A DNA stretch of 64,000 nucleotides from a virus. Its lineage: Duplodnaviria > Caudoviricetes. Where the stretch lies: IMG/VR virus record IMGVR_UViG_2602041664_000001, positions 18,872 through 82,871 of that record; one strand, 5' to 3'. A program made the translations under genes and the position numbers. Below the pieces are notes generated by a model. It saw only the letters and a program-made list of their open reading frames with translations. It made no database searches and was not told the origin of the DNA. Shown here one piece after another: positions 871 through 56,825 of the stretch; position 1 is the first letter of the stretch, and each line of letters begins with the position of its first letter.

Positions 871-976
871 AAAGTGTACACTTTGGCAGCATAAAAGTGT
901 ACACTTTCAACTCTCAAAAGTGTACACTTTCGCATCACTAAAGTGCACACTTTAGTATCACCAAAGTGTACACTTT
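871..976. repeat. Array A1: five 14-bp palindromes AAAGTGTACACTTT, exact 23-bp period
   Basis: Copies start at 871, 894, 917, 940 (GTGCACAC variant), 963. Confidence 0.95.
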
Positions 977-997
977 TAGTTTTCGCAGGTATATATC

Positions 998-1032
998 TGT
1001 CCTAACTAAAATATAACGTTTAATTATCTTTG
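998..1032 (+). promoter_or_regulatory. Phage-type promoter TGTCC-N22-TATCTTTG
   Basis: Bacteroidetes -7 box with TGTCC starting 27 bp upstream; same spacing at 10 loci. Confidence 0.7.
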
Positions 1033-1036
1033 CTAT

Positions 1037-1441
1037 ATGAAAAGAATGGCAATCAAATACAAGGTGCAGCATCGACGCTCACAGGTGTCTGGTAAGCATT
1101 ATGCTTCTTTAGCTGCTGTCTCTAACGGACGTATTTCTTTAAGCGACCTTTGCGAGGATGTAGCCTCTAAGTCGCACATGGAAGCTCACGAGATTCGTGG
1201 CGTTATGGAACGTCTGGCAAGTCGTGCGCAAACACTTCTCTCTCGTGGTTTTCGTGTAGAGTTTGGCCCTGTCACTATCTTTCCAAAATCGTCTGGTACG
1301 CTTACCGATACTGAAACGCACGCTGCTACCGCTGACGACCTCTCGGTGGTGAAAGCAAAGACTACGCTCGGTGCTACCGTCTCCCGAAAGTTTACACGTG
1401 ACTTTGCAGAAGGTTGTAACTGGCAGAGGATAGACGAGTGA
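1037..1441 (+). CDS. HU-related (Bacteroidetes histone-like) DNA-binding protein, paralogue 1
   Basis: Y-A-x(n)-GRISLSDLCEDVASKSHM...LSRGFRVEFGPVTIFP pattern; true start may be ATG 1046. Confidence 0.8.
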   Translation: MKRMAIKYKVQHRRSQVSGKHYASLAAVSNGRISLSDLCEDVASKSHMEAHEIRGVMERLASRAQTLLSRGFRVEFGPVTIFPKSSGTLTDTETHAATADDLSVVKAKTTLGATVSRKFTRDFAEGCNWQRIDE

Positions 1442-1609
1442 TGCAGAAAGAGGTGATAAGTAGAACTATCTTTAATCCAGAAACGGGGGGGGGTAGTAAG
1501 AATACTTAAAGCGAACTATTACAAGATGGGTCATCGGAACTTTCTGTTTCGTTCTGATGGCTTTATCGCATCTTGTGTACTGAGTGAATATAGTTTTGAG
1601 AATTTTTGA
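1441..1609 (+). pseudogene. TRD-like mini-ORF U1, out of frame at a G9 tract (1485-1493)
   Basis: With G8 it reads MQKEVISRTIFNPETGGVVRILKANYYKMGHRNFLFRSDGFIASCVLSEYSFENF; ATG overlaps HU stop (TGATG). Confidence 0.65.
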
Positions 1610-1754
1610 TAAAAAGACACTATTACCTATCTGTGTAACTGTTGATAATTGTGTGGTAACACTTGTCTCCAGATATGGTAATATGGATTGGTCTAATCTT
1701 ATAGGTACACAGCATTATCCTATGACTGCTGTAATGGTTGAATATGATTTGTAA
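1584..1754 (+). CDS. TRD-like mini-ORF U2 (56 aa)
   Basis: ...ICVTVDNCVVTLVSRYGNMDWSNLIGTQHYPMTAVMVEYDL; clearly similar to T4 (3490-3687). Confidence 0.6.
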   Translation: MNIVLRIFDKKTLLPICVTVDNCVVTLVSRYGNMDWSNLIGTQHYPMTAVMVEYDL

Positions 1755-2547
1755 CTTTGTTGGTTGGACACGTGACGATAAAGGAAAGGTTCTAAACAGG
1801 CACTTTAAGGATATTTGTAATACGATTACTTCCAAGGCTGGTAGAAATGGTAATACCTCTCCTTTTGTGTGCATTAGTAATAATAATTCTAATAAAAGTA
1901 TGATTGCAAAGATTTATCCTGACGGGCATCCTGACTTGTTGGGAAAGAAAGATCCAACGCATCCTGTGCGTTATTTCGATATTCGTAAATTGACGCCGAC
2001 TGAATGCTTTCGTTTGATGGGTGTAAGCGATAATGATATTGAGAAGATTTTGCAAAGCGGACTGAGTAAGTCAGCTTGCTATAAATTGGCTGGTAATTCT
2101 ATCGTTGTTGATTGTCTCTACTATATCTATCGTAATATATGGCTGACCGAAGACGAACAACCACGGACGGGTGATGTTATGAGCTTGTTTGACGAACCTA
2201 CTTTTCGTGCTCCATTACCTAAAACTATCAATATGGTTACGTTATGTTCAGGTTATGATTCGCAGTGTTTAGCTATGCAACGTCTTATTTCAGATGCTAA
2301 ACAGCAGGGCTATGATGTGACGTTCGACTTGAAGGCGTGGAGTGAGTTCGACCCTGAAAGTCGTTCTGCCTTGGAGAAACAACCGGCGGTTGTGGCACAC
2401 AACTCTCTTTTTCCTCAGTTTGCTGACCGTAACGTGGGTGATATGACCAAAGCAGATTGGTCGTTTCTGAAGGGTGAAAATATTGATTTGCTTACCTATT
2501 CAACTCCTTGCCAGTCTATTCTCAAGCGGGAAAGCGGACAGGGATAA
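1744..2547 (+). CDS. Circularly permuted DNA (cytosine-5) methyltransferase, 5' part (TRD, motifs IX-X, I-IV)
   Basis: RKLTPTECFRLMG (IX), YKLAGNSIVV (X) precede TLCSGYDS (I) and LLTYSTPCQS (IV, catalytic PC). Confidence 0.85.
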   Translation: MICNFVGWTRDDKGKVLNRHFKDICNTITSKAGRNGNTSPFVCISNNNSNKSMIAKIYPDGHPDLLGKKDPTHPVRYFDIRKLTPTECFRLMGVSDNDIEKILQSGLSKSACYKLAGNSIVVDCLYYIYRNIWLTEDEQPRTGDVMSLFDEPTFRAPLPKTINMVTLCSGYDSQCLAMQRLISDAKQQGYDVTFDLKAWSEFDPESRSALEKQPAVVAHNSLFPQFADRNVGDMTKADWSFLKGENIDLLTYSTPCQSILKRESGQG

Positions 2548-3026
2548 AACGTGATAGCGGTACACGTTCATCTGTGTTGTGGTACACAGAGAATGCTATT
2601 CGTGCCTTGCGTCCTAAGTTTCTCTTACAAGAGAATGTTCGTGCGTTGGTTAACAAGATTAATGTCGATGATTTCAAGGAATGGCAGAAGGTATGCCAGG
2701 ATTGTGGCTATACGAATTATTGGACTATTATGAATGCAAAAGACTTTGGTGTTCCACAGAATCGTGAACGTGTCTTTATGCTTTCAGTTCGTAATGACTT
2801 AAATCTCCCTACTTATCGTTTTCCTAAACCTTTCCGTCTCGACAAAGCTATTGTTGATATTCTTGAGGAGGATGTGAATGAATCTTATTTCTTAAAGCCA
2901 GAGAGCGTTCTTAAGTTCTTCGAGGCTAATGAAAAGCCAGAAGATGCAGGTATTCATTATCTTGTAACCGATCATAAGCTGTCAGATGTGGAGATTGCTA
3001 ATGTGCGTGGTGCTGAAAAATCGTAG
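2508..3026 (+). CDS. C5 methyltransferase 3' part (motifs V-VIII), -1 frame relative to the 5' part at ~2520
   Basis: SQAGK...RSSVLW, LLQENV (VI), MNAKDFGVPQNRERVF (VII-VIII); one extra T at 2520 gives continuous PCQSISQAGK. Confidence 0.85.
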   Translation: MPVYSQAGKRTGIKRDSGTRSSVLWYTENAIRALRPKFLLQENVRALVNKINVDDFKEWQKVCQDCGYTNYWTIMNAKDFGVPQNRERVFMLSVRNDLNLPTYRFPKPFRLDKAIVDILEEDVNESYFLKPESVLKFFEANEKPEDAGIHYLVTDHKLSDVEIANVRGAEKS

Positions 3027-4174: not shown

Positions 4175-4177
4175 GTT

Positions 4178-4212
4178 TGTCCCACATCGTTGTTTTTGTT
4201 TTCCTATCTTTG
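4178..4212 (+). promoter_or_regulatory. Phage-type promoter TGTCC-N22-TATCTTTG
   Basis: Exact 27-bp offset between TGTCC and the -7 box. Confidence 0.7.
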
Positions 4213-12601: not shown

Positions 12602-12705
12602 TTGCTATAATAACTCCCTAAAGGGTGATATAGCAAGGCAAAGCGGGTTACTATAGTAACTCTAAGCGTCTTGCTATACTAACCCGAAGTGACTTACTAT
12701 AGCAA
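12602..12705. repeat. Array B1: five degenerate palindromes TTRCTATAGYAA, exact 23-bp period
   Basis: Copies start at 12602, 12625, 12648, 12671, 12694. Confidence 0.9.
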
Positions 12706-12724: not shown

Positions 12725-12759
12725 TGTCCCTATGTATGTTTGTAAATGAACTATCTTTG
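12725..12759 (+). promoter_or_regulatory. Phage-type promoter TGTCC-N22-TATCTTTG
   Basis: Same spacing as the other copies. Confidence 0.7.
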
Positions 12760-12792: not shown

Positions 12793-13323
12793 ATGTATAT
12801 TATGGCAAGAGTCAAATATACCGTAAGGGAAAACAAAAAGTTAGGTAAGCATAGTTTCTATGCTGTTCCTATTCCTAACGACACTCTGACCTTTGCAGAG
12901 CTTTGTCGTGAGGCGTGTGATAACACCTCTATCGAGCCTTCTATTATGCAGGCGGCAGTGACTGACTTTATGAAAGTCGTTCAGCGCAATGTGCTGAAAG
13001 GTTTCCGTTGCAATTTAGGAGACAAGTTCTTAACAGTCTATCCTAACCTTCAGTGTTCGGTAAAAGACACCGACAAGGTTACGGCTACGGCTAAGATGGT
13101 CAACGCTGCCAATGGCAGAAGCCGTTTAGGTTGCACGGTGAGCATCAAGTTCAGTCAGCAGTTTGCCGCAGAGGTGAGCTGGCAGAAGGTGGACAACCGT
13201 GGCGTTGCTATCGAGGAAGACAACATAGTCGAGGAGGGCAAGGAACATCAGCCGGGCGGTAAGCCTGGTGGTGGTGGTGCGGGAGTTAATCCGCCTTTGC
13301 CTGGAGGAACGGTAGAGGGATAA
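12793..13323 (+). CDS. HU-related DNA-binding protein, paralogue 2, Gly/Pro-rich tail
   Basis: HSFYAVP...LTFAELCREACDNTSI...LKGFRCNLG...YPNL. Confidence 0.85.
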   Translation: MYIMARVKYTVRENKKLGKHSFYAVPIPNDTLTFAELCREACDNTSIEPSIMQAAVTDFMKVVQRNVLKGFRCNLGDKFLTVYPNLQCSVKDTDKVTATAKMVNAANGRSRLGCTVSIKFSQQFAAEVSWQKVDNRGVAIEEDNIVEEGKEHQPGGKPGGGGAGVNPPLPGGTVEG

Positions 13324-14089: not shown

Positions 14090-14518
14090 ATGAGTAAAAA
14101 AAACAAAGCAAAAGAGACTTCTCCAACTGCTGCCCCACAGAAGAAGGTAGACAGCAGAGTAGAACACCCAAGTTACTATAACGCTCACCCATCAGGTGTA
14201 GAGTGCATTGCCATTGTTCGACATTATAACTTCAATGTTGGCAACGTAATTAAGTACCTTTGGCGACATGGCTTAAAGCGTGAAGAAGGTATGAACAATA
14301 AGGCAAAAGCACTGGAGGACTTGCGTAAGGCACGTTTCTATCTTGATGATGAGATTAAGAGATTGGAGCGTGAAGCAGTTAAGGAAGACAGAGAACTTTG
14401 TCGTAAACATATTCAAAGTTATGTCATCCCGTTCAGTGATATTGTTTCTGCTTCTCGTATTCTTCGTGAACTTCTCAATACTGAGGGTAAGGCTGAAAGC
14501 AAGAAAGGAGGCCGCTAA
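14090..14518 (+). CDS. DUF3310-like protein
   Basis: VEHPSYYN...ECI...FNVGNVIKYLWR...EDLRKARFYL. Confidence 0.85.
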   Translation: MSKKNKAKETSPTAAPQKKVDSRVEHPSYYNAHPSGVECIAIVRHYNFNVGNVIKYLWRHGLKREEGMNNKAKALEDLRKARFYLDDEIKRLEREAVKEDRELCRKHIQSYVIPFSDIVSASRILRELLNTEGKAESKKGGR

Positions 14519-20504: not shown

Positions 20505-20539
20505 TGTCCTATACAGGGGAAGTTATCTTATTACCTTTG
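20505..20539 (+). promoter_or_regulatory. Phage-type promoter TGTCC-N22-TACCTTTG
   Basis: Same spacing; upstream of the terminase operon. Confidence 0.7.
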
Positions 20540-24609: not shown

Positions 24610-24623
24610 CTTGCTATAGCAAG
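24610..24623. repeat. Single perfect B-type palindrome CTTGCTATAGCAAG
   Basis: Matches the consensus of array B1. Confidence 0.75.
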
Positions 24624-34779: not shown

Positions 34780-34814
34780 TGTCCCACACATTCCTTATAT
34801 CAATTTTATCTTTG
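34780..34814 (+). promoter_or_regulatory. Phage-type promoter TGTCC-N22-TATCTTTG
   Basis: Same spacing. Confidence 0.7.
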
Positions 34815-34833: not shown

Positions 34834-37788
34834 ATGACAGAAGCAAGCGCAAGTAATTATTGGATTAGTTCCACGGCTTTGAGTATAACGCTTAATGCTA
34901 TGGGTGATGCTGACTATATTCAGGCAAATGTAGCCAGTGGTGCTATGATAATGTGTTATATGCGTAACATAGACGGATTGGGCTATGATGCAGGACATAA
35001 CTATCGCCGTTGGAATTTGATAGCCAACCCAACTTATTTCAATTCTACGACCGAGAAATATGTCTATGCTGCTATCCCCCGCAAGCAGCAAGAGAATGGC
35101 ACGGCATTGATTGTGTTCCCTTCTGAGCGTGTTGATATTTATGGTAAGTCAGCCACTGAAGTTCAGCTTGGCTCTGAAGATTATTATTACATCTTCCTCG
35201 GTGGTGTTATCAGTCCTTCGGTTGTTGGCGGTGTGTTGCAAAACAGAACGTGGACACAACGCGTTGATACCGGTAAATTGGCTTCTGACGAAGCTATCGC
35301 TGCTGGCGGTGATAATACTTGGTGGCTCTATAGTGCTGTTGATGATACGGTGACTTTCTTGAAGGCTATTGTTCGTGCCGCATTCGATAATATCGAGGCT
35401 AAGTATGCGACCGTAAAGAACCTTATTATCGGTGGAGAAACTTTGACGGGTGTCGCTAATAATGAAACGCCAAAAAACTCTCGTGTCGACGTGGTTACGC
35501 CTGACTATCTTTTTGGTAATTCTGATGCTCGATATATCCGTAAGGATATTGATGATAGGGTTTCTTCTATACTTACTTTTCTTAATGGCGTTCACTTTGG
35601 CGATGACTTTGAGAAAGATCTTCGTGGTGCTGGCATTTATCGCGACGAACAAGGAAGTTGGCATATCGACACTGATTATATTCACGCACGCAAGAAGCTG
35701 ACAGCAGAAGAGGTGGAGATAATGAAGACCTCCCACATCAAAGGAAAGGTCGTGAACTCTGCTGGCGGCTTTGTCATTTCACGAATAGAGAAGATAAATG
35801 GTGCATGGCGGTGTTTCTTTGTTCAGCAGGATAGTGAAGGGCGTAGGGTGTATAACTCCATGCTTAAGGACGACTTGGCTCTTTGCGAGACGTTTAATCT
35901 TATTGACAATAACGGACAAACAGCTAATCACTACTGGTATAGGCGTGTTACTGCTGTCGGTACTGATTACGTAGATATTGCTGACAATACGAATGTAGAT
36001 TACTATGCGAGTGGTAGCGATGTTCCACAGGTGGGTGACGAGGTTGTGCAGCTTGGCAACCTCACAGTCAAAGAACGTCAGAGTGCTATTATTCAGTCAG
36101 CAGCAGGAGAGGGTAGTCCGTACTTTAAGATTATAAAGGGCATCAATAGTTTTATCCTCCCTGATCCTATCTTCTTATTTGATAAGCAGAACTTCGAGAT
36201 ACGTGTCGAGAACCCAGCTAATCGTGGTGAGTATATCCCTCTGCAAAACTTCTTGGAGACGATGCAAGGACGTCTCAATGCTGTTCAGCAGCAATCAGAT
36301 AAGCAACTGGTTATTTGGTTTGGTGACGTGGTACCAACGCTCACCAGTGAACCCGCTAACGAGTGGACGGACGATGAAACGAAAGAAATGCACGAGCATG
36401 ATGTATATTACAATCGCTCGTATGCTGAAACTGGTGGCGGTCGTGCTTATTCTTTCGAGAAGAATCCAGACGGCTCTTTCTCTTGGCACGAGATTACAGA
36501 TGCTGATGTCCTCAAATCATTAGAAGCAGCAAAGCGAGCACAAGATACGGCAGACGGTAAGCGTAGAGTTTTCGTGCAAGCCGTACCAGTTCCTCCATAC
36601 GATAAAGGCGACCAGTGGAGTAATGCTACCTTCGAAGATAAGTATAACAATGATTTGCTTGTTTGTGTTCGCCCGAAAGCGACTGGCGAGTCTTTCGATA
36701 TTGAGGATTGGACTTCTGCACAACACTACACCACGAAGCAGTTTCAGGCAGAGTTTAACGTGGGGGGAAATAGTATCTCTGCCGTTGTTCGTGACCTTTC
36801 TACAGGTCTTAAGCGTGTCGGATTCAATCTTGACGGTGAGAATAGCACCTTTGACATTGTTGCAGACACATTCAAGGTCACGACTACAACGGGCAAAGTC
36901 CCGTTCTTTACCAGTAACGGAAAGCTAAACGCTTACTTTATTGATGCAAAGTCAATAGTAACTGAAGGCATCAAGGCTCAGACTATCGATGCAAAAGGAG
37001 CTACATTTCAGAATATCACCGTTACTGGTGAAAGTAAATTCGGGGGTGAGCTTGATGGAGCAAGCGGAACATTTAAGGTTCTTAGATGTCTTAACAGCAA
37101 CAGAGAACCTACTGGTGGTATTTATTTTGAGGAAAGAGGAAGCCAAGCTATTATGGCAATTGAGGGCGATTTGGGTATGCGTAAGAACGTTGAGGGAAAA
37201 TTTCGTAAACGCCTGCCACGCTTCTATGCTAAAGATGTTTGGTGTCAAGGACAGTTCGGGCATTATGCTAAGATTTGTGCTGTCGTTAAAGATGATATGA
37301 TGTACGTTCATCATGGTGGGCATATTGAGACAAATGGAGTAAAAGTACAGTTGCCTACCGTAACTGTAAAAAGTGGTGGAAGTGATATCGTCTGCTATAA
37401 AATTCCATTATATGCACCGGGCTATCATGGAGCAGATGGAGATAACGGAGTTGTGAGGGATGTTGATAATCCTGCCTTACATCCGGGTCTTACTGATTTT
37501 GAAAGAGAGATTCCTTATGGTGCTCCTATTGACATGGTAATCTTTAACTGCGAACAACCTCACAGTTATGTCTTCTTTGAAATGGGATATGGCAAAGAAT
37601 GGGTAGTGTTTAATGGCAAAGACAATGTTGAAGTTTATATCTGTGATCATCGAGAGATTAGAAAACTTGATGGTGGTTGGGTGAGTCACTATTTATATGT
37701 TAATCCGTTATGGCTTACTCCATCTAAGAGCAAAGAAACTCCGGGAGCAGGTATTATTTACACAGGTACAGTTGATTTTGACTGGTAA
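34834..37788 (+). CDS. Tail spike/fibre-type structural protein
   Basis: 984 aa; SDVPQVGDEVVQLGN...RQSAII and AQDTADGKRRVF...PPYDKGD motifs of Bacteroidetes phage tail proteins. Confidence 0.75.
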   Translation: MTEASASNYWISSTALSITLNAMGDADYIQANVASGAMIMCYMRNIDGLGYDAGHNYRRWNLIANPTYFNSTTEKYVYAAIPRKQQENGTALIVFPSERVDIYGKSATEVQLGSEDYYYIFLGGVISPSVVGGVLQNRTWTQRVDTGKLASDEAIAAGGDNTWWLYSAVDDTVTFLKAIVRAAFDNIEAKYATVKNLIIGGETLTGVANNETPKNSRVDVVTPDYLFGNSDARYIRKDIDDRVSSILTFLNGVHFGDDFEKDLRGAGIYRDEQGSWHIDTDYIHARKKLTAEEVEIMKTSHIKGKVVNSAGGFVISRIEKINGAWRCFFVQQDSEGRRVYNSMLKDDLALCETFNLIDNNGQTANHYWYRRVTAVGTDYVDIADNTNVDYYASGSDVPQVGDEVVQLGNLTVKERQSAIIQSAAGEGSPYFKIIKGINSFILPDPIFLFDKQNFEIRVENPANRGEYIPLQNFLETMQGRLNAVQQQSDKQLVIWFGDVVPTLTSEPANEWTDDETKEMHEHDVYYNRSYAETGGGRAYSFEKNPDGSFSWHEITDADVLKSLEAAKRAQDTADGKRRVFVQAVPVPPYDKGDQWSNATFEDKYNNDLLVCVRPKATGESFDIEDWTSAQHYTTKQFQAEFNVGGNSISAVVRDLSTGLKRVGFNLDGENSTFDIVADTFKVTTTTGKVPFFTSNGKLNAYFIDAKSIVTEGIKAQTIDAKGATFQNITVTGESKFGGELDGASGTFKVLRCLNSNREPTGGIYFEERGSQAIMAIEGDLGMRKNVEGKFRKRLPRFYAKDVWCQGQFGHYAKICAVVKDDMMYVHHGGHIETNGVKVQLPTVTVKSGGSDIVCYKIPLYAPGYHGADGDNGVVRDVDNPALHPGLTDFEREIPYGAPIDMVIFNCEQPHSYVFFEMGYGKEWVVFNGKDNVEVYICDHREIRKLDGGWVSHYLYVNPLWLTPSKSKETPGAGIIYTGTVDFDW

Positions 37789-43118: not shown

Positions 43119-45167
43119 ATGGCAAAAAGCAAATGGAAATTCAGACAAGATGACCTCGATACTATCTTCACGGTCATTAACCAAGGATTGATGAAGAAAC
43201 CCTACTCGGTGGAATATCACGATACATACGATGATGGTACACCTGTTTGGAACGGTGAGAAATCCGTACTATGGAATCTTATGGAGCAGGCATATCCCGA
43301 AGAGCGTGCGCAGATGATGCGCAGAATGCTTGCGAAGATGGAGGAACTCGGAGGGTTGCAGAAAGGATCACACCAGCAGAAGCTCTTTGCATTCTTTGCT
43401 AAGTACTATTTTTCTGTGATTGATAAATTCTCATCTATGCTCTACAATGAAGATGGCAAGCTATATGAGAAGATGAAGCTCGCTATGCTACAGGGAACAT
43501 ACACGAACGATACCGACCCACTCGGTCAGTCGCTCGGTGATGGGCAATCACCCGAGGTTGCGTGGGTAAAGAAGCGCATTCAATACCTTATGTCTAAGTA
43601 TTCCTTCGGAGATTATGATGCCAAGACTGCTGAAGGTGCGATTACTGTTCGTACATCAGCACAGGCGGATGCAACAACTAACTCTATTACCTTACGTTTG
43701 ACACCTGCAATGAAATTGTACCCTACTATTGCGTACGGTACCACAATTATGCGTGGTGCTCGCACAGATGCAGGTAAGCCTTGTGAGATAGTTGTCGATA
43801 TCAACGGCACGTCCGACCAGCAGCTATCAGTTAAATCAGCAGACTACCTGCTCGATATTGGCGATTGGTCATCATACGTCATTAATGGTGCGCTCTCTAT
43901 CATTGGTAAGCGACTCAAGCGATTGAAGCTCGGTGATGAGAAAGAACAGAAGGTGAAGATACTAATATCTTCGCTCACGCTCGGCAATACAACATCCTTA
44001 GAGGAGATAGATATTCAGAACATATCTACCCTCGGAGGTGCGCTCGATATGCGTGGGAACTTCCGCTTGCGTAAGTTCCTCGCTGGTGGTTCCTCGCTCA
44101 CCGAAGCACACTTTGCAGATGGTGCTGCACTCGAGGAGGTCGACTATCCAGCTACGACATCATACGTGGAATTAAAGAACCTCGATAAACTCACGAACGA
44201 GCACTGCGACACAGAAGCGTGCGCTCCTAATGTAATGAGTTACTTTGTTAGCGGGTGTGACAATCTCCAGCCGATTAAAATGCTCATTGGAATAATGGAT
44301 GCACAGGTTGGGCAAGTTCCTCATGCTCTGCGTTACGTGCGCTGTGTCGGTTTCAATGAGACTTTCACGGACGGACGAGCATTCGATAAACTCTCCCAGT
44401 TAGTCGATGGAACATATCAAGGAATCGATGCAGAGGGTCAGTACGGCAACGACCCCTACCCAGTTCTCGACGGCACTATCAATCTCTCCACAGGTGCATA
44501 TCGTGATACCTACGATGCACTTATGACGCACTATCCTAAGCTCAAGCTGAACATCGCTAAGTGGTGGATTCGCTTCGAAGACCCAGAGGTGAAGCGAATC
44601 TGTGTTGAGAATTGGGACAAAGACGGTGATGGCGAGCTCTCTATGGAGGAAGCCGCTTCAGTTAGTTCCATCGGGACTATCTTTAGGGGTAACATAAAGA
44701 TTAAAGACTTCTCCGCATTCACTTTTTTCACAGAAATAAAGGGAAACGAAGGGGGTATTTTTGATGGATGTAAGAATCTTGAAAAAATAGCAATACCTAC
44801 GGGATATACACTACAACATACGATGTTCTCTAATTGTATTCGTCTAAAAGAAGTAATCTTTCCAGTCAACATGAAGTCTTCACCAGTCTTATACGAGACC
44901 TTTTCACACTGTATAGCACTCAAAGTTCTTGATTTCCCTGAGACGTTTACAGGCATCATTAACTCAGGAACCTTCAGAGGTGTTACTGCTATACTTATAT
45001 TCAGGGCGCAGACTGTTGTGAAATTCGAACGATATGCAGGTTGGCCATTTTTTTACAAAGGCAACAACATCTATGTACCTGATAGTTTGGTAGAGAAATA
45101 TAAGATTACTGACGGCTGGAATGATAAATCAGAATGTATTAAGCCTCTCAGTGAGTATCAAGGGTGA
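43119..45167 (+). CDS. Tail fibre/receptor-binding protein with exchangeable C-terminal BspA-like LRR cassette
   Basis: FEDPEVKRICVENWDKDGDGELS..EA..V-SIGT then LRR and IYVPD..PLSEY; crossover site at 44668. Confidence 0.85.
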   Translation: MAKSKWKFRQDDLDTIFTVINQGLMKKPYSVEYHDTYDDGTPVWNGEKSVLWNLMEQAYPEERAQMMRRMLAKMEELGGLQKGSHQQKLFAFFAKYYFSVIDKFSSMLYNEDGKLYEKMKLAMLQGTYTNDTDPLGQSLGDGQSPEVAWVKKRIQYLMSKYSFGDYDAKTAEGAITVRTSAQADATTNSITLRLTPAMKLYPTIAYGTTIMRGARTDAGKPCEIVVDINGTSDQQLSVKSADYLLDIGDWSSYVINGALSIIGKRLKRLKLGDEKEQKVKILISSLTLGNTTSLEEIDIQNISTLGGALDMRGNFRLRKFLAGGSSLTEAHFADGAALEEVDYPATTSYVELKNLDKLTNEHCDTEACAPNVMSYFVSGCDNLQPIKMLIGIMDAQVGQVPHALRYVRCVGFNETFTDGRAFDKLSQLVDGTYQGIDAEGQYGNDPYPVLDGTINLSTGAYRDTYDALMTHYPKLKLNIAKWWIRFEDPEVKRICVENWDKDGDGELSMEEAASVSSIGTIFRGNIKIKDFSAFTFFTEIKGNEGGIFDGCKNLEKIAIPTGYTLQHTMFSNCIRLKEVIFPVNMKSSPVLYETFSHCIALKVLDFPETFTGIINSGTFRGVTAILIFRAQTVVKFERYAGWPFFYKGNNIYVPDSLVEKYKITDGWNDKSECIKPLSEYQG

Positions 45168-45598
45168 TACTCGCTAAGGGGTCGGATTAATTTTGCTAAC
45201 CAGAATCTACTATACTCTTGCTTGTATTGTGTAATGGTTGAATCTGGCACATAGATATACTTTAAATTCTCATTTAGAGCATGAATAGAGGAATTATTAA
45301 TTTTAGGAGGAGTTTCAGGCAAAAGAATAATAGTTGTAAGCTTCTCATTCCTTATTATAGATTCTCCCAATATTTCCCTTACATTAGCTGGTATTGTAAT
45401 CTCTTTTAATCCCGTATTATAAAATGACTGATAAGATAATATAACAAGAGAATTAGGAAGCTCTATCGTTTCTAAATTTGTGCAATTTGAAAAGGAAACG
45501 TACCTTGAAACGACTCCTCCTAACACTTTAAGGCCTGTAAATAATTTGAAACCTCTAAAACTTGTTATCTGTTTGTTATTTGCGAACATAGTCCCGAT
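45158..45598 (-). other. Silent shufflon cassette 2 (IGTMFANNK...PLSEYHP)
   Basis: Open frame from the recombination site to the stop; LRR. Confidence 0.85.
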
Positions 45599-45634
45599 GG
45601 GATTAAGACAGTATTTGAACATCGTTTTAATCCC

Positions 45635-46123
45635 ATCGGGACTATCTTCGCAGGAAACAGAAGGATAAGGAATCTACAGGTCTTATCATTCACCAATATC
45701 AAAAGGATTGGATATGAGAACTTAGAGGGATGTGAATCTTTAGAATCAATCACTATCCCTAAGAGTGTAGATGTTATAGGTTTCTATACATTCGGAGGTT
45801 GGTCTTATAACCCTCTTAAATCTCTTAAAACTGTTTTTGTAGAGGAAGGGACGTTGTCGTATATACCTGAAGGATTTGATAAATACATTAAGGATGTCGT
45901 AGACTACCCTTCTACTATATCTTCTTTTGGATATACTCAACCTTCTTTGCTTGCGAAAATTACCATTTTAAGATCAAAGACCCCACCTACTATTAATTTC
46001 TCCTCACTAAAGGGAAACGGCGTTATATATGTGCCTGACGACGTAATAGAAACTTATAGACATTCCGACAACTGGGCTCGTGTTGCAGATAGAATTTACC
46101 CTTTAAGTGAGTATCACCCGTGA
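45635..46123 (+). other. Silent shufflon cassette 3 (IGTIFAGNRR...PLSEYHP)
   Basis: Open frame from the site, no own start codon. Confidence 0.85.
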
Positions 46124-46530
46124 TACTTACTAAGCGGATAGATATACTCTGCTATATCTGAGAAGGAAGCACTTGCTTTGTATAAATTAACGCTCTCGTC
46201 TGGCACAAAGATTCTTGAGCCCGTTCTATCACTCCATCCATACGAAGCGTTCTTTCCTTGCTTAGGAGGTATTTTGCTTTTGATTACAAAGTTTTTAAAA
46301 CGCAACCCCCATAATAAAGAACTTTGCTGCTCCATGTTCTCAACGATGAGATTATCAATCGTTGAATTATAGAAGCACGCTTGGTACACAGATACAGAAG
46401 GTGGACATATTAGTTTGTAAAGGTGTACTATATAACGTAAGCTCTCTTGATTAACAGAGTTGAGATTCTTAAATATAGATAGGTCTAATATGCCATTTTT
46501 TCTATCTAAGCCTTGGAATACAGTCCCGAT
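46114..46530 (-). other. Silent shufflon cassette 4 (IGTVFQGLD...PLSKYHG)
   Basis: Open frame from the site. Confidence 0.85.
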
Positions 46531-46566
46531 GGGATTAAAACAGCATTTGAACACCATTTTAATCCC

Positions 46567-46959
46567 ATCGGGACTATTTTCTATAATATGAATACAGATA
46601 ATCTCTCAGATCTGAAGCATTTTAAATCAGTCAAACTCCTTCCGTCAGTAGGTGGAGCTCCTCGCTCATACTTCTATAATACAAGAAGAATCGATATACC
46701 TGAGAATGTCACGTCGCTTAGTCGTTATGTATTAGGTTTCAACACATCAACAGTTGTCGTTTTTCATGGAAAGACTCCTCCAAGTCACGACTGGACATTT
46801 TCTAACACGACAGCAACCTACGATACATGCACACCTAATGGGTGCAAGTTCTATGTACCTGACGAGAGCTTGGAAGCATATAAAAAGGCTTTTACAAGTA
46901 AACCTTGCCCATTAAGAGGAACATCTATTATTCGTCCTATGAGCGAGTATCACGAATGA
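46567..46959 (+). other. Silent shufflon cassette 5 (IGTIFYNMN...PMSEYHE)
   Basis: Open frame from the site. Confidence 0.85.
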
Positions 46960-47315
46960 TACTCGCTCATAGGATGGACTCTATCTACATATTTATAATT
47001 CATCCATGTCTTTTTATACGTGTTTAAAGCCTTATCAGGTACGTATATACATAGCTTCGTAGGAATTCGCATAGCCGTATCTTTATTAAACAGCGTGTCA
47101 TCTCCAATAGGTGTATCACCCAGCATGATTACATTCTTCAGATTCTCACAGCCTAAGAACATTCTTCTTCCACATCCTTTAACAGTGGAAGGAATCCACA
47201 CCTCTTCCAAGTTAGACATATTCCTAAATATGTCATTATTCAAGTACTGAATTTTGAAGTATTGCAACTCCTTGAATCTCTTAACATCATTACGGTTGTA
47301 GAACTTAGTTCCGAT
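46950..47315 (-). other. Silent shufflon cassette 6 (IGTKFYNRN...PMSEYHS)
   Basis: Open frame from the site. Confidence 0.85.
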
Positions 47316-47322
47316 GGAACCC

Positions 47323-48327
47323 TTATCTAAACGCTCTCCGTATCTCCTTATTAATCGTTGTGTCTTTCACAGCAGAATACACCTGAGTAGTCTTGATGCT
47401 CTGATGCCCTAATATATGTTGTATAATAGGTAAGCTCACACCCTTACTCAGTAGCACAGTGGCGCACGTATGCCTGGCACAATGAAAAGTAATGTGCCTA
47501 TGTATATTGAATCGCTTAAGCACACGCTTCAGTATCAGGTTACAGCGAGCGTTACAGGGCAACTGAAAGAGTTTACCTGTCGTAGTCTTGTTCTCTTGCA
47601 CCATTGCAGCAGCCTTTCCTCCAAACATCTTAGAGATAGGTATTCGCACCTCATGGTCAGTCTTCTGCATTCGCATCACCACCCACTTGTTCCGATAGAT
47701 GTTCTTAACGTGCTGCTTAGTTACTTGCACGATGTCCGAGAATCGAAGACCTGAATAGACGCTGAATAGAAAACCTTTAACCACCTTTCTCTCCTCTTTT
47801 GTCAAGTCTTCCTTTACCTCTTTCTCCTCAATCCGCCTCAGTTCTCTCTCTGTCAGCGATTGCTTCTGAACATTCTCCGTCTTAATGTGATACTTGCGAA
47901 AAGGATATACCGTCATCAGTTCCTCGTCGATAGCGAGATTGACGAATCGACGAAATATCTTCATAAACTTTGCAATAGTGTTTATCGCATACCCAGCACC
48001 TTTCAAGAAGTTCTCGAAATCGCATATACATTTATAATCAATCTGCGTAAAGGTCAGTTCTTCCTTATATCGCTTTAGCACCGCCAGTGTAGCCTTATGA
48101 TTTGCTATTGTCCCTGCTGTATATGTCTCCTTATCTATCTCACCTTCCATCCAGTCGAGGAAAGAACTATTCTCTTTGTATGTTGTTATTTTTGGATTGT
48201 CTATTAGTTGGTTTATATTACCGATACGTTTTACAAAGTATTGTCCGTCTATTTGTATCTGTATTAATGCGTTGTGTCCACGTAATTTTATTGCAATGTC
48301 CTGAACAATCTCTTTGATGTCTTTCAT
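47323..48327 (-). CDS. Tyrosine recombinase (probable shufflon invertase)
   Basis: SGLRFSD, HCARHT, LGHQSIKTTQVY; stop 5 bp from the last shufflon site. Confidence 0.9.
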   Translation of the reverse strand: MKDIKEIVQDIAIKLRGHNALIQIQIDGQYFVKRIGNINQLIDNPKITTYKENSSFLDWMEGEIDKETYTAGTIANHKATLAVLKRYKEELTFTQIDYKCICDFENFLKGAGYAINTIAKFMKIFRRFVNLAIDEELMTVYPFRKYHIKTENVQKQSLTERELRRIEEKEVKEDLTKEERKVVKGFLFSVYSGLRFSDIVQVTKQHVKNIYRNKWVVMRMQKTDHEVRIPISKMFGGKAAAMVQENKTTTGKLFQLPCNARCNLILKRVLKRFNIHRHITFHCARHTCATVLLSKGVSLPIIQHILGHQSIKTTQVYSAVKDTTINKEIRRAFR

Positions 48328-49852: not shown

Positions 49853-50254
49853 ATGGCAAGAAGAAATGAAGATGATAAAGATGTAAAGGAATATCGTGGC
49901 AAGCGTTTCGATATGCGTGCTTTAATGGCTAAATATGATGTATCTATCAGTGATTTGGCTAACGGAACTGGACTTTCTTATGGCTCAGTTCAGTCCCTTA
50001 TTAGACTCAATCGCCCCTCTATGACAAATCTTTACAAGATAGCTCAAGCATTGTCTTGTGATGTTACAGAGTTATTTTTATCTGAAGATGAAATAGAGAA
50101 TCCATCTTTTTCAAATAATATAGATGGGGAAGATACGTTTAAAAAAGATTTTGATGTTAAACCTTTAGACCCTTCTTTAATACCTGGTTTAATGTTATCC
50201 CATGACACGATAACTTGTCCTTATTGTAGCAAACGTTTTTTGTTGTTGGATTGA
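49853..50254 (+). CDS. XRE-family HTH regulator with C-terminal CPxC motif
   Basis: VSISDLANGTGLSY...PSMTNLYKIAQALSCDVTELF...ITCPYCSK. Confidence 0.85.
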   Translation: MARRNEDDKDVKEYRGKRFDMRALMAKYDVSISDLANGTGLSYGSVQSLIRLNRPSMTNLYKIAQALSCDVTELFLSEDEIENPSFSNNIDGEDTFKKDFDVKPLDPSLIPGLMLSHDTITCPYCSKRFLLLD

Positions 50255-51677: not shown

Positions 51678-52277
51678 ATGGAAACTAATTTTAATGAAAT
51701 CGCAAAACTGAAAGAAATTAATGCGCGTGAAGCTGCGTTAAAACAGTATATAGTATATGAAAAAGTATATAGTGACGTTATCCCCGCTTTGTATGTCAGT
51801 ACTTATGCAAAGTATAACGCGGGGTATCTTACAGGTGCCTGGATTAATCTTCAGGCTTGCAAGGATAAAGAAACTTTTTTTAAAGTTTGCCGTGCCTTGC
51901 ACGGAGATGAGGAATACCCTGAATTAATGTTCCAGGACTTCCGAGGCTTTCCAAAAGAATTGTATTCGGAGTGTGGCGGAGTTGATAACCTATACACTTA
52001 TATAGAGGCTTTGGAAAGTTGTGAAAATCCAGAAGCTCTCGCAGCTTTCCTTGAGTATTTCGAATTAGATGATCTTTGTGAATTTGAAGATCGCTTTATA
52101 GGTCCTTTTGATTCTGAAGTAGATTTTGCCTATGATTATGTAGATAATAGGAATTTTAAAAAAGATGCGGGGGAATTAGCATTATATTTTAATTACGAAG
52201 CATACGCCCGCGATTTGTTTATAAATAACTATGTCTTTATAAACGGCTTTGTGTTCTTTAAAGGAAATTTAAAATAG
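51678..52277 (+). CDS. ardA: ArdA antirestriction protein
   Basis: LYVSTYAKYNAGYLTGAWI, PELMFQDF, YFNYEAYARDLF; acidic. Confidence 0.9.
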   Translation: METNFNEIAKLKEINAREAALKQYIVYEKVYSDVIPALYVSTYAKYNAGYLTGAWINLQACKDKETFFKVCRALHGDEEYPELMFQDFRGFPKELYSECGGVDNLYTYIEALESCENPEALAAFLEYFELDDLCEFEDRFIGPFDSEVDFAYDYVDNRNFKKDAGELALYFNYEAYARDLFINNYVFINGFVFFKGNLK

Positions 52278-55272: not shown

Positions 55273-55531
55273 TATATAGGACCTCTGAAAAATTGGAAAA
55301 ATCGTGGAGATTTTCTGACCTACTGCCCGCTTCTTCTTAGAAATTATAAATTAGTTTTTGAGAGAGTCAAATGTCAAATAAGAAAACGTTTTTTATTATT
55401 AGAGATAGGTCGGTTCCTGACTATATGAATAATCTTTGAAAAGCTTGTGCGTGCAATGATTTTTGTTTATTTCAATATAAAGGAGGTTGAGACAATTCCT
55501 ATATATAGGACCTCTGAAAAATTGGAAAAAT
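55273..55531 (+). repeat. 30-bp direct repeat TATATAGGACCTCTGAAAAATTGGAAAAAT (55273, 55502); degenerate copy at 53861
   Basis: Two identical copies and one variant. Confidence 0.85.
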
Positions 55532-55662
55532 TTTAAGGATTTTGTTTGGCATTGCTCCCTTGAAAATAGAAAATGGTATTTATGCCTTTTATAGTAATAG
55601 AAAATAATTAGATATAATAACCCGTGAGGCGGAATAAAGGCTTCACACAAAAAGAAAAGAAT

Positions 55663-55998
55663 ATGAAACAGACTGACAAGATTTTGATTGCTTTAGGCTT
55701 TGTAGCTTCTGGCTCTGACTTTGATGAGAAGTTTGAGAATTTTGCTTCTAACTTTGGTGTTCAGTGGAGACCTTCAGACTTATGCGATGCAATTTCAATG
55801 AGTGTAGACAATAATAGTGCAGTGCGTAATTCTTTAGTTTCTATTATGTGGGATCGCGTTGTATCTCATTTTGTTGACAAAGGACTTTGCTCGGAACTCT
55901 TTGACTATTACATCAACGGCTCAATTGATACTCATTTCTATTATGATGGTGTAGAAGTCTTTTGCGCAGACGACTTAGAAGAATACGTAACGGATTAG
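55663..55998 (+). CDS. Hypothetical early protein
   Basis: ATG after hairpin and A-rich leader. Confidence 0.7.
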   Translation: MKQTDKILIALGFVASGSDFDEKFENFASNFGVQWRPSDLCDAISMSVDNNSAVRNSLVSIMWDRVVSHFVDKGLCSELFDYYINGSIDTHFYYDGVEVFCADDLEEYVTD

Positions 55999-56114
55999 TT
56001 TATTTCGTGCTCATAGTGAGTATTTGATGAAAGGAGAACTCATAACGCTTATATAAGGCGTAACAATATTTAGATTTCATTTTTCATAGTTTTTGTTTTT
56101 AGCCGTGTGGATTT

Positions 56115-56149
56115 TGTCCCACGGCTTTTTTTATTATTTCTTACCTTTG
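56115..56149 (+). promoter_or_regulatory. Phage-type promoter TGTCC-N22-TACCTTTG overlapping a terminator hairpin (56101-56131)
   Basis: Same spacing; AGCCGTG...CACGGCTTTTTTT. Confidence 0.65.
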
Positions 56150-56189
56150 AGTATGAATATCAGAGGACCACCATATTGTTCGTTTTCAT

Positions 56190-56247
56190 AAAGTATATAC
56201 TTTACGCTGCTAAGGTATATACTTTAAGTTGGTAAAGTATATACTTT
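56190..56247. repeat. Array C2: three AA(A/G)GTATATACTTT palindromes, 22-bp period
   Basis: Copies start at 56190, 56212 (AAGG variant), 56234. Confidence 0.9.
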
Positions 56248-56288
56248 ATTTTAAGCAGCTATTTTTTACGCCAAAAAACAATAAGATT

Positions 56289-56825
56289 ATGGCTGGTAAA
56301 AATATTAATTATACAGTCGTTGAGCGTACGTCTCCGATTAGTAAGAAACATTATGTGATGTCTCAGGTTATACCTACAGGCTCACTCAGTTTTGAACAAC
56401 TTTGCGAGGATGCCTGTCAAGGCACTACGCTCGACCCGCTGGAGATGCAGACGGCGGTAAAGTTCTATATGAAGGCAGCACAGAAGAATTTGCTTCGAGG
56501 CTTTCGAGTTCCTTTAGGACCTTCGTTCTTAATCCTCTATCCTAAGTTGGAGATGAGTGTGACGGATAAGGATGGTAAAGTTGCAAAACTGGAGGATGTG
56601 ACGGCTGCTAAAGCCCACCCTACTCTGGCTTGTACTGTTGCACCTAATTATAGTCGTGCTTTTCGTATGGCGGCATCTTTCCAACGTGTAACGCCTAAGG
56701 GAGTTGTTGTGCCTGAGCCTGGAGAGGATATTAACGAGGATAACAAGAAGGGGGACCCTACCACAGGAGGCGGTGGCGGTACTGAAGGAGGAACACCAGT
56801 GCCAGGGAATACGATTGAGGGCTAA
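56289..56825 (+). CDS. HU-related DNA-binding protein, paralogue 3, Gly-rich tail
   Basis: LSFEQLCEDACQGTTL...LLRGFRVPLG...LYPKL; similar to paralogue 2. Confidence 0.85.
   Translation: MAGKNINYTVVERTSPISKKHYVMSQVIPTGSLSFEQLCEDACQGTTLDPLEMQTAVKFYMKAAQKNLLRGFRVPLGPSFLILYPKLEMSVTDKDGKVAKLEDVTAAKAHPTLACTVAPNYSRAFRMAASFQRVTPKGVVVPEPGEDINEDNKKGDPTTGGGGGTEGGTPVPGNTIEG

Follow-up and report, generated by a model that had tools for sequence, protein, structure and literature searches.

Phased palindrome arrays are associated with HU-HIG genes in a Bacteroidota-type phage and across related genomes

Arrays and promoter-like elements at three phage genes

The window analysed here, a 64-kb stretch of DNA, is the final part of an 82.9-kb (82,871-bp) Bacteroidota-type phage genome from gut or rumen (G000), which carries an integrase, ParA and TAnnTTTG promoters and has nearly all of its genes co-oriented. 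The 82,871-bp genome encodes three HU-HIG (PF18291) paralogues only, and each follows an array of short palindromes at fixed spacing:

871-976, no strand: array A1a (type 1), 5 copies of AAAGTGTACACTTT at a 23-bp period, upstream of HU-1
998-1032, plus strand: predicted HU-1 promoter of Bacteroidota type, from a pattern scan (TGTCC at 998-1002, 22 nt, TATCTTTG at 1025-1032)
1037-1441, plus strand: HU-1, HU-HIG paralogue without a glycine-rich tail
12602-12705, no strand: array A2 (type 2), 5 degenerate copies of TTRCTATAGYAA at a 23-bp period, upstream of HU-2
12725-12759, plus strand: predicted HU-2 promoter, from a pattern scan (TGTCC at 12725-12729, 22 nt, TATCTTTG at 12752-12759)
12793-13323, plus strand: HU-2, HU-HIG paralogue with a glycine-rich C-terminal tail
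56115-56149, plus strand: promoter-like element near HU-3 (TGTCC at 56115-56119, 22 nt, TACCTTTG at 56142-56149)
56190-56247, no strand: array A3a (type 3), 3 copies of AARGTATATACTTT at a 22-bp period, upstream of HU-3
56289-56825, plus strand: HU-3, HU-HIG-like paralogue with a glycine-rich tail

Pairwise identities of 27%, 33% and 40% (the last between HU-2 and HU-3; E 2e-19 to 1e-37) mark the proteins as true paralogues. Against the Pfam HU-HIG cut-off of 26.2 bits, HU-1 (53.1) and HU-2 (32.8) score above and HU-3 (20.8) below, and no paralogue matched the classical HU/IHF family (Bac_DNA_binding, PF00216) at E <= 0.01. The MAKVKY N-termini of orthologues make ATG 1046 and ATG 12802 likelier starts for HU-1 and HU-2 than the 1037 and 12793 assumed in the earlier note.

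All three arrays lie where that note had placed them, and its observation that spacers differ in sequence while keeping a constant length is confirmed. Copies of A1a start at 871, 894, 917, 940 and 963, exactly 23 bp apart, and four of the five are exact (the copy at 940 has one mismatch); with up to two mismatches the type-1 motif matches the window 15 times against 0.46 expected. A2 has the same exact period (starts at 12602, 12625, 12648, 12671 and 12694), with two exact copies, two with one mismatch and one with two. As the type-2 motif by itself is not enriched (20 matches against 14.5 expected), the significance of A2 lies in five matches in exact register. All three copies of A3a are exact. 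The detector (a 12-mer, at least 10 of 12 positions matching, a fixed period of 15-40 bp and at least three copies) returned no arrays from shuffled DNA of six phage genomes, five shuffles each.

A TGTCC promoter class had been proposed ahead of all three genes. At HU-1 and HU-2 the element stands between array and gene, its TGTCC 21 bp beyond the end of A1a and 19 bp beyond the end of A2. At HU-3, TGTCC-N22-TAnnTTTG instead precedes the array and shares sequence with a terminator-like hairpin (56106-56123). A3a, positioned as an operator or leader element would be, separates the promoter-like element from the HU-3 start. An exact TAnnTTTG scan of 33 cases located a -7 box between array and gene in 5 and only upstream of the array in 11, and found none in 17; with box positions this variable, a simple activator picture fails in general.

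Further sites in the phage and in related genomes

The suggestion that each HU gene is paired with its own array is correct in that every HU gene has one, and incomplete in that types 1 and 3 also occur at non-HU loci:

24473-24578, no strand: array A1b (type 1), 5 copies at 23 bp, between a terminase-like gene and a 197-aa gene
24611-24622, no strand: single type-2 palindrome without mismatch, TTGCTATAGCAA, downstream of A1b and ahead of the start codon at 24652
24652-25245, plus strand: 197-aa gene downstream of A1b, partial phrog_799 match
34658-34715, no strand: array A3b (type 3), 3 copies at 22 bp
34834-37788, plus strand: 984-aa tail or tail-fibre-like gene downstream of A3b (phrog_17422, tail-protein PHROGs)

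The 197-aa gene opens a block of unannotated genes, and A3b ends 64 bp upstream of a TGTCC-N22-TATCTTTG promoter (34780-34814, by pattern scan). A third type-3 array, A3c, lies outside the window at genome positions 1637-1694, between convergent genes, and is thus not a promoter element. All 10 type-1 and all 9 type-3 sites with at most one mismatch fall within arrays. An exact type-2 site is expected about 0.025 times per shuffled genome; the one at 24611 is kept in the relative G007 and has one mismatch in the relative G006, while A1b falls from five copies to three in G007 and one in G006 in an otherwise conserved region. The presence of types 1 and 3 at non-HU loci makes autoregulation, one of the roles offered earlier, insufficient by itself.

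Palindromes are the most constrained part of these loci. Between relatives about 93-95% identical, 12 of 224 palindrome columns vary, compared with 20 of 104 spacer columns and 38 of 320 flank columns (palindromes against spacers, Fisher's test p = 2e-4). Arrays of one type in G000 have palindromes and spacing in common and unrelated spacer sequences, and the combination of free spacer sequence with fixed length argues for selection on motif and helical phase and not for copied DNA. Support for the proposed orthogonality of the sites comes from G6/C9 in type 1 versus A6/T9 in type 3, invariant in 10/10 and 9/9 copies.

The association that the earlier idea required across genomes was found, and the idea survived. 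Genes for HU2-like proteins (53-71% identical) have 21-23-bp arrays with gene-specific motifs upstream in 25 of 31 cases, counting loci whose upstream sequence spans 119 bp or more; in 19 of 32 loci a strict detector gave 22/23-bp arrays in the 300 bp ahead of the gene, and six more were recognized by eye. Counted by protein cluster at 90% identity, 10 of 14 have an array, and the remaining ~112 kb of these loci contain only four. Generic HU-HIG genes of Bacteroidales genomes have arrays upstream in 15 of 41 cases (8/20 and 7/21), against 17 non-HU arrays in 397 kb, or about 5% of intergenic regions (binomial test versus 0.05, p = 6e-10). Arrays are thereby 7- to 8-fold in excess at these upstream positions, with a separate motif for each gene, and none of six classical HU genes has an upstream array. 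HU-linked periods are all 21-23 bp, although 15-40 bp was allowed.

The association is partial. No array was found at 6 of 31 HU2-like and 26 of 41 generic HU-HIG genes, and arrays of at least three copies stand at 1 of 10 HU-HIG genes in G028 and 0 of 5 in G009. Part of the HU-linked arrays (in G001, G004 and at L123) are built of direct repeats in place of palindromes. In bacterial genomes most arrays are not beside an HU-HIG gene, and the same motifs recur at about 9 to >200 further loci of the same genome.

Motifs present both at a gene and elsewhere include types 1 and 3 in G000, a type-2-like array in G003 (12220 and 28353), AGTTACCCACTAACT in G010 (L061 and C24:37993) and GTTCCATCRYGATGGAAC in G011 (115 sites versus 1 in a control; one array precedes an HU-HIG gene); in G039 the count is 23 versus 1 in the control. 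Phage G001 has two HU-HIG genes (the second at 43 bits), each immediately preceded by an array, and the two arrays are of different types. Only 11 G000 ORFs match anything in G001-G005 by BLASTP.

Candidate readers of the arrays

We suggest, at a probability of roughly 0.6, that HU-HIG proteins are predicted sequence-specific, array-binding members of the HU family, with feedback on their own genes and private sets of further sites; the number match between three array types and exactly three paralogues counts in favour. Each of HU-1, HU-2 and HU-3, in the HU-HIG branch of the HU/IHF superfamily, would recognize its own 12-14-bp palindrome, in arrays of 3-5 copies whose fixed 22- or 23-bp spacing is about two helical turns. 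At this spacing several dimers could load side by side, and such dimers, if they bind cooperatively, may bend or wrap the DNA into a single nucleoprotein complex.

Feedback would come from the array at each protein's own gene, and the further type-1 and type-3 arrays and the single type-2 site could act on other transcription units (the block after the terminase gene, the tail-fibre-like gene and, near the tape-measure cluster, one more site). Thus, the three pairs look like orthogonal switches or architectural marks, which may be wired to different phage modules. Any effect on transcription would probably take its sign from array position: A1a, A2 and A3b, about 20-65 bp upstream of a -33-like TGTCC, occupy what may be an activator or upstream-element position, and A3a, downstream of its promoter-like element, a possible operator or roadblock position. 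The earlier interpretation is partly supported, and the pairing in many related genomes suggests that a poorly understood family reads specific DNA sequences.

The strongest competitor, though an unlikely one, is that another host or phage factor reads the arrays and that HU-HIG genes are just frequent targets, for example as a tightly controlled class. In its favour, most arrays in bacterial genomes do not adjoin HU-HIG genes, and the phage encodes a Cro/C1-type HTH protein (49853-50254). Near-identical HU-HIG proteins also stand behind different motifs. In a clade at least ~89% identical, V14F and T16S, at the N-terminal hairpin's tip, are common to the different-motif members L087 and L088, and three arm-region changes (K102T, D105K and T107S) are additional in L087; none of these positions varies among L084, L086 and L093, which have one motif in common, and only 13-16 of 148 residues differ between these three, L087 and L088. 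Either a handful of substitutions is enough to switch specificity, or the arrays have a different reader. Motif-protein covariation is not independent evidence, since array and gene are adjacent and co-inherited. Against another reader, HU-HIG is the only gene consistently adjoining arrays across phages that share almost no other genes. Motifs differ between lineages, so one conserved host factor cannot read them all, and three motif types would require three more binders, while G000 has no second three-member family with a DNA-binding fold.

Rather less probable is a role as single-stranded nucleic acid, in which the repeated palindromes of read-through transcripts would pair with one another into long, REP-like nested hairpins that govern processing, termination or stability. 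Read-through is plausible with nearly all phage genes co-oriented, leaders and the gaps between convergent genes contain many of the arrays, and arrays folded as RNA reach -25 to -50 kcal/mol (z-scores -6 to -10.6). Such energies are, however, a trivial outcome of palindrome repetition, and single palindromes give A/U-rich stems of only 4-5 bp. Spacers that are constant in length but free in sequence reflect a constraint of duplex phase and not of pairing, variant copies (AATGTG..., ...CTTA, AAGG on either arm) break pairing without strand bias, and the direct-repeat arrays at other HU-HIG genes are unable to fold in this way.

We consider it improbable that the arrays serve in cis as iterons, a centromere or a pac site, in replication, partition or packaging, with the HU-like proteins as accessories. 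In iteron plasmids, ParR/parC and omega systems the classic layout has repeats spaced by about 22 bp immediately ahead of the binder gene, which the phage arrays resemble; A1a also lies beside replication genes (clamp-like upstream, primase-like downstream) and A1b directly after a terminase-like gene. Yet A1b shrinks in close relatives, and bacterial chromosomes contain 9 to >200 arrays of this kind. Behind its own ParA gene the phage moreover carries a 108-aa ORF and, around an AT-rich stretch, a distinct locus of 21-bp inverted repeats, which is the better centromere or origin candidate; this leaves segregation the least likely of the roles first offered.

Equally improbable is that the arrays are dispersed repeats of a selfish or neutral kind (similar to MITEs or REPs), which happen to accumulate in the intergenic DNA of mobile, fast-evolving loci such as HU-HIG genes. 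In favour, copy number varies, G009 has hundreds of copies with semi-conserved spacers, and HU-HIG genes lack conserved neighbours according to Burroughs et al. 2017 (PMC5499826). Against it, same-type G000 arrays share only palindromes and spacing, palindromes are more constrained than spacers and flanks, and the excess upstream of HU-HIG genes comes with a separate motif at each.

Relation to known HU-family and repeat-array systems

The same paper (PMC5499826), which defined the clade, presents HU-HIG as a Bacteroidota-centred, fast-evolving family with many paralogues, deems its members unlikely sequence-specific transcription factors on the grounds of rapid divergence and missing operon linkage, and proposes a role in conflicts with invading DNA. 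A sequence-specific reading contradicts that inference. HU-2 and HU-3 have the glycine-rich C-terminal tail that it ascribes to one subclade, and it describes 4FMR (BVU_2165, Bacteroides vulgatus) as a homodimer.

Beyond the Pfam scores of HU-1 and HU-2, likeness to the family shows in an AlphaFold2 model of HU-2 (pLDDT 81.7), whose best PDB match is 4FMR itself (E 2.6e-5), followed by HU/IHF-DNA complexes. The model adds a hairpin at the N-terminus and lacks long beta-ribbon arms; a loop containing short helices occupies residues 85-105, and binding in the manner of HU therefore cannot be assumed. The family has no known function, whereas the genes here are phage-borne and tied to phased arrays, a link of which we found no description in the literature searched.

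Within the same superfamily, proteobacterial IHF is a sequence-specific, DNA-bending protein of transcription, recombination and packaging. As a heterodimer, it uses long beta arms to recognize single asymmetric sites, each about 30-35 bp long, in contrast to the short palindromes in phased arrays, three separate paralogues, extra hairpin and model without long arms described here. At rank 19 among the structure matches of the HU-2 model is PDB 1EXE, which is TF1, the HU homologue of Bacillus phage SPO1. TF1 resembles HU-1, HU-2 and HU-3 as an HU-family protein carried by a phage; it has preferred sites in the SPO1 genome and modulates phage transcription, but has classical HU architecture and depends on hydroxymethyluracil DNA, and we know of no phased palindrome arrays or orthogonal paralogue sets for it.

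Plasmid regulators offer a comparable layout. Omega (pSM19035), ParR/parC (R1, pSK41) and Rep-iteron systems place short repeats at a constant interval, frequently near two helical turns, ahead of the binder's own gene and at other promoters, where binding is cooperative and autoregulation is combined with a second function. These are ribbon-helix-helix or winged-helix proteins on mostly direct repeats, serving copy control or partition, and no sequence or fold relationship to the HU-HIG paralogues was found. Enterobacterial REP/BIME/RIP elements form palindrome clusters scattered through intergenic DNA, and IHF or HU binds some of them; to our knowledge REP elements are neither 22-bp phased nor linked to a private paralogue gene, and the comparison is one of analogy only. 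The likeness lies in the 9 to >200 dispersed arrays of the Bacteroidales genomes G009, G011 and G039; on one G009 contig, 3 of 8 arrays lie between convergent genes and thus are not promoter elements.

Phased arrays in the phage genome

The earlier note described three HU-related genes, each paired with its own array of regularly spaced palindromes, and all three arrays were re-found in the sequence with the same coordinates, periods and copies. An array does stand before each of these genes, which belong to the HU-HIG family (PF18291), but the pairing is less exclusive than proposed, as array types 1 and 3 also occur elsewhere in the phage genome (G000). The array observation holds, with more strength and a wider reach than first noted.

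Arrays, HU-HIG genes and predicted promoters (window coordinates unless stated)
871-976: array A1a, type 1, five copies of AAAGTGTACACTTT at an exact 23-bp period, four exact and one with one mismatch
1037-1441, + strand: HU-1 gene
12602-12705: array A2, type 2, five copies of TTRCTATAGYAA at an exact 23-bp period, with 0, 0, 1, 1 and 2 mismatches
12793-13323, + strand: HU-2 gene
24473-24578: array A1b, second type-1 array, five copies at 23 bp, between a terminase-like gene and a 197-aa gene
24611-24622: lone perfect type-2 palindrome, directly after A1b
34658-34715: array A3b, second type-3 array, upstream of a 984-aa tail-like gene
56190-56247: array A3a, type 3, three exact copies of AARGTATATACTTT at a 22-bp period
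56289-56825, + strand: HU-3 gene
Genome 1637-1694, outside the window: array A3c, third type-3 array, between two convergent ORFs
998-1032, 4205-4212, 12725-12759, 20532-20539, 25277-25284, 29642-29649, 34780-34814, 56115-56149: examples of the predicted promoter class, from a pattern scan

Shuffled controls (five shuffles of each of six phage genomes) yielded no arrays with our detector, which seeks a 12-mer matching at 10 or more of 12 positions in at least three copies at a fixed period of 15-40 bp. All type-1 and type-3 sites with at most one mismatch lie inside arrays (10/10 and 9/9), and the two symmetric positions that distinguish these types are invariant within each. The type-2 motif by itself is not enriched (20 matches versus 14.5 expected), and the improbable feature of its array is the exact register rather than motif frequency. 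The lone type-2 palindrome, of which ~0.025 are expected per shuffled genome, is kept in the related genome G007 and has one mismatch in G006, a 77.8-kb viral contig ~93.5% identical to G000 and circularly permuted relative to it.

Constraint was compared among close relatives (n = 5 for A1a, 10 for A2, 4 for A3a and 2 for A3b), leaving out A1b and A3c because their copy number differs between relatives (A1b has five copies in G000, three in G007 and one in G006; A3c has three in G000 and four in G006). Variable columns numbered 12/224 in palindromes, 20/104 in spacers and 38/320 in 40-bp flanks, palindromes being less variable by Fisher's test (p = 2e-4 versus spacers and p = 0.01 versus flanks). 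Per-sequence differences, which are non-independent counts, came to 16/910, 39/440 and 84/1200, respectively. Arrays of the same type have spacers of identical length and unrelated sequence. Thus, the lower variability of the motif, together with spacers fixed in length without shared sequence, points to selection on both motif and spacing, as would be expected of proteins that load onto duplex DNA in a single face pattern.

Promoter calls come from our own scan for the TAnnTTTG pattern, and the promoters are predicted from pattern matches alone. This Bacteroidota-type -7 box lies upstream of many phage genes, some without TGTCC, and a predicted class, TTTGTCC(C/T)A-N21-TAnnTTTG, precedes at least 11 genes, structural and HU genes included; it may mark a temporal gene class. 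A1a and A2 end 21 bp and 19 bp, respectively, upstream of the TGTCC element in the predicted HU-1 and HU-2 promoters, and A3b lies upstream of its predicted promoter with 64 bp between. A3a sits downstream of the predicted promoter, in the leader, and 3' of A1b there is only a poor -7 box, with the lone type-2 site occupying the would-be promoter spacer. Array positions vary (upstream of promoters, in leaders, between convergent genes), and their effect may be one of activation, of repression or of architecture.

Arrays and HU-HIG genes in other genomes

The proposed pairing hinged on an association of arrays with HU-related genes across genomes, and one was found, both for HU2-like genes (53-71% identical) and for generic HU-HIG genes. 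In genome and metagenome collections, the strict detector placed a 22- or 23-bp array within 300 bp upstream at 19 of 32 HU2-like loci. Inspection by eye added four loci with degenerate type-2 arrays and two that are the window's own A2, giving 25/31 with an array and six without, once a locus with too little upstream DNA was excluded. Of the 14 protein clusters at 90% identity, 10 include genes with an array, whereas the other ~112 kb of the loci hold only four. At least nine different motifs are represented, the majority being palindromic around a TATA-like centre.

The architecture of G000 is also seen in four further phage or provirus records that carry HU2-like genes, although these have very few other genes in common with G000. 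Each of the two HU-HIG genes of G001 directly follows an array of its own, at 22 or 23 bp. In G003, one type-2-like array precedes the HU gene and a second lies at a distance of 16 kb. In G004, an array precedes a second HU-HIG paralogue, and a type-2-like array stands upstream of a different gene. The type-2 array of G005 is in trans only, and no array was found in G002.

Among generic Bacteroidales HU-HIG genes, a 21-23-bp array lies within 450-470 bp upstream in 8/20 and 7/21 cases. This total of 15/41 compares with a background of ~5% of intergenic regions (binomial p = 6e-10), a figure that assumes one region per ~1.1 kb by our own estimate; the background search found 20 arrays in 397,289 bp of four contigs, three of them before HU-HIG genes. 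The share differs between genomes (5/8 in G010, 6/11 in G039, 1/10 in G028 and 0/5 in G009), three more generic genes have an array just downstream, and classical HU genes have none (0/6). By eye, four G009 HU-HIG loci carry two-copy leader motifs 22 bp apart; that of L109 is different, and those of L108, L111 and L182 are TTAACGAGTTA-like and closely related to the TAACRYGTTA motif dispersed through the same genome. Some G039 HU-HIG genes (L149, L152, L158 and L161) have two different arrays in tandem upstream. The L152 motif (TTTATAYRACATTG-like) is similar to that of the L158 array closest to the gene, a likeness that could be cross-regulation between paralogues or recent duplication.

Motifs found before HU-HIG genes recur at other places in the same genome. 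In G011, GTTCCATCRYGATGGAAC has 115 sites versus 1 for its reversed control. G039 has 23 sites of AGTGGTAYGAYCRTACCACT versus 1 in the control, forming ~9 arrays, the others of which are never beside an HU-HIG gene, and AGTTACCCACTAACT occurs at two G010 loci, the second with a TAnnTTTG box downstream. In G009, TAACRYGTTA forms 440 pairs at 22-bp spacing versus 0 in the control, and one 100-kb contig of this genome holds eight arrays at three convergent, one divergent and four co-oriented intergenic positions. Each of the Bacteroidales genomes G009 (L133-L137 and genome-wide), G011 and G039 has its own dispersed intergenic array families, usually of three copies at 22 bp. We found no description of these chromosomal arrays in the papers searched, and they would be of interest by themselves.

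HU-HIG proteins as candidate array readers

HU-1 (53.1 bits) and HU-2 (32.8 bits) pass the PF18291 cut-off of 26.2. HU-3 on its own scores 20.8 bits, below that cut-off, and is nevertheless clearly homologous to the others, with 40% identity to HU-2 (E 1e-37) and 33% to HU-1. Pairwise identities of 27, 33 and 40% mark the three as real paralogues, and a search of the whole phage genome found no further HU-HIG paralogue.

Classical HU and IHF proteins are about 90-100 aa long with long beta-ribbon arms. Membership in that family is rejected for the phage proteins, which have 134-178 aa, an extra N-terminal hairpin and, in the model, a short arm region; none of the three matched the classical family (Bac_DNA_binding) at E <= 0.01. 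Fold prediction covered HU-2, for which the AlphaFold2 model (pLDDT 81.7) comprises an N-terminal beta hairpin, an HU core and a glycine-rich tail that is disordered. In the PDB, the model matches chains of 4FMR in the first four places (E 2.6e-5 to 1.4e-4), with HU/IHF next, and the predicted fold is of HU/IHF type, nearest to this solved HU-HIG structure. 4FMR is described as a homodimer (Burroughs et al. 2017, PMC5499826).

Glycine-rich C-terminal tails occur on HU-2 (residues 140-173, disordered in the model) and HU-3, and supply a C-terminal extension of one of the three HU-HIG kinds (wHTH, Ig or glycine-rich motif); HU-1 has no such tail. Both tails share the terminal motif P(L/V)PG(G/N)T(V/I)EG (13230-13323; 56720-56825), relatives end in ...ELEG or ...VEEG, and this shared end may be a docking peptide. 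On other contigs, several HU2-like genes are interrupted. The last residue in frame is 33 (...FDV) in L015, L016 and L074 but 38 in L017, and L067 lacks ~24 residues in-frame. One gene (L011/L085) starts with ATA instead of ATG. An inserted element, decay or a variant form may be the cause.

The simplest account of these patterns would be that HU-HIG proteins read the arrays. Motif families and HU-HIG paralogues number three and three in G000 and two and two in G001. In G000 and in other genomes, the candidate site stands both at the gene of its putative binder and at loci beyond it and is conserved above background, as for an operator and its regulator. Four features together are the usual signature of an autoregulated DNA-binder with private targets: an array beside the gene that encodes the protein, recurrence of its motif in trans, motifs that differ between lineages, and a separate motif family for each paralogue. 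The palindromes would fit a symmetric dimer, and packing at 22-23 bp would fit side-by-side loading. On these sequence comparisons, sequence-specific array-binding by HU-HIG proteins is partly supported.

A tight protein clade (at least ~89% identical) includes members with the same motif (L084, L086 and L093) and with a different one (L087 and L088). Both changed-motif members carry V14F and T16S at the hairpin tip, and one has three further changes in the arm region; same-motif members are invariant at all these positions. This small sample hints that hairpin-tip and arm changes may be specificity determinants. A simple code linking hairpin-tip residues to motif class does not extend to every clade, as L061 has KVGTH but an AGTTA...TAACT motif.

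Several observations count against HU-HIG proteins as the readers. Each array is inherited together with its gene, many HU-HIG genes are without arrays, and most chromosomal arrays have no HU-HIG gene beside them. Certain arrays consist of direct repeats, and the HU-2 model lacks long HU arms. Among the rival readings are that a different protein binds the arrays, and that the arrays are selfish repeats. A role as single-strand or RNA structure is weakened: folding energies of array RNA are very low, but this follows from repetition of a palindrome and does not discriminate between the readings, and both the constant length of the spacers and variants that disrupt pairing, in one arm or the other, speak against it. 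Origin, centromere or pac sites are a further rival, of which the segregation reading is weakened by a ParA locus that G000 has apart from the arrays, with 21-bp repeats of its own. By site architecture, the nearest analogues are the omega, ParR and iteron systems; an iteron/Rep or ParR/parC-type system is rejected given HU-fold proteins and that separate locus. The GTAC/GTATAC cores of the palindromes might suggest restriction or methylation sites in a phage with several methyltransferases, a reading disfavoured by fixed phasing and lineage-specific motifs.

Returning to HU-HIG proteins as the readers, the nearest functional analogues of HU-1, HU-2 and HU-3 within the superfamily are IHF and phage SPO1 TF1. 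A far-reaching version, to which we tentatively give a probability of roughly two in five, is that the whole family consists of unrecognised sequence-specific, array-binding nucleoid proteins. Many paralogues per Bacteroidales genome, and others in phages, would each have private 21-23-bp-phased sites, from two or three arrays in a phage to hundreds per chromosome, forming orthogonal regulatory or architectural circuits that evolve via a few N-terminal-hairpin and arm residues; G000 would use three for its replication, head and tail modules. HU-HIG is among the largest lineage-specific expansions of Bacteroidota, the dominant Gram-negative bacteria of gut and rumen. The link from paralogue to private array would give a predicted DNA target for each HU-HIG protein, points to a hidden layer in the control of phage genes and the organisation of chromosomes, and might supply naturally orthogonal protein-operator pairs for Bacteroides genetics.

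The only dedicated study, which defined HU-HIG, proposed interception of invading DNA and argued against sequence-specific regulation (Burroughs et al. 2017, PMC5499826). The available portions of a 2025 preprint (10.1101/2024.06.24.600358) merely mention the family, and those of PMC5771137 and PMC3878776 contain nothing resembling arrays at HU-HIG genes. No description of such arrays was found in the literature searched, which left most subscription journals outside.

Probable partition locus and gene content of the phage

The window covers bases 18872-82871 of one contig, which is 82,871 bp long, has 41% G+C and carries nearly all its ORFs on the + strand. Family matches include tape-measure, primase-like, thymidylate-synthase-like, PAPS-reductase-like, terminase-like, head-protease-like and tail-like proteins, a clamp-like processivity factor, methyltransferases, a tyrosine integrase, a Cro/C1 HTH protein, ArdA and a ParA ATPase. 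G000 is a tailed phage and shows temperate or plasmid-like traits, and relatives of its HU genes were found in Bacteroidaceae and Prevotellaceae genome bins. Neither megablast with a 24-kb part of the window nor tblastn with HU-1 and HU-2 as queries found a match in the GenBank phage collection, and no Rfam family reached its gathering score in the window.

ParA locus and anti-restriction genes (window coordinates unless stated)
62586-62630: 16-bp repeat preceding parA
62773-63609: ParA-type ATPase gene
63614-63940: 108-aa ORF with no family match, after the ParA gene
63934-64000: 21-bp repeats after the 108-aa ORF
1738-3026, 51678-52277, and 11750-12667 of L023: methyltransferase-like and ArdA set

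The contig ends are 55-bp inverted copies of each other (the start copy is L023 1-55), and at 14200-14470 of the permuted relative G006, three repeats and four inverted repeats flank a ~125-bp AT-rich stretch. This ParA-side repeat locus is probably a partition centromere or origin, inside which the G000 contig probably broke.

Several DNA methyltransferase-like genes, one directly 3' of HU-1, form an anti-restriction set with the ArdA gene. In a region at 43119-48327, paralogous cassettes that alternate in strand (45158-47267) occur in the C-terminal part of a 682-aa tail-fibre-like gene, the cassette borders bear recurring palindromic sites (for example, 45123-45175 with 46106-46158; 46935-46974), and a tyrosine recombinase gene (47323-48327, - strand) adjoins them. 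This region looks like a shufflon-type invertible host-range switch.
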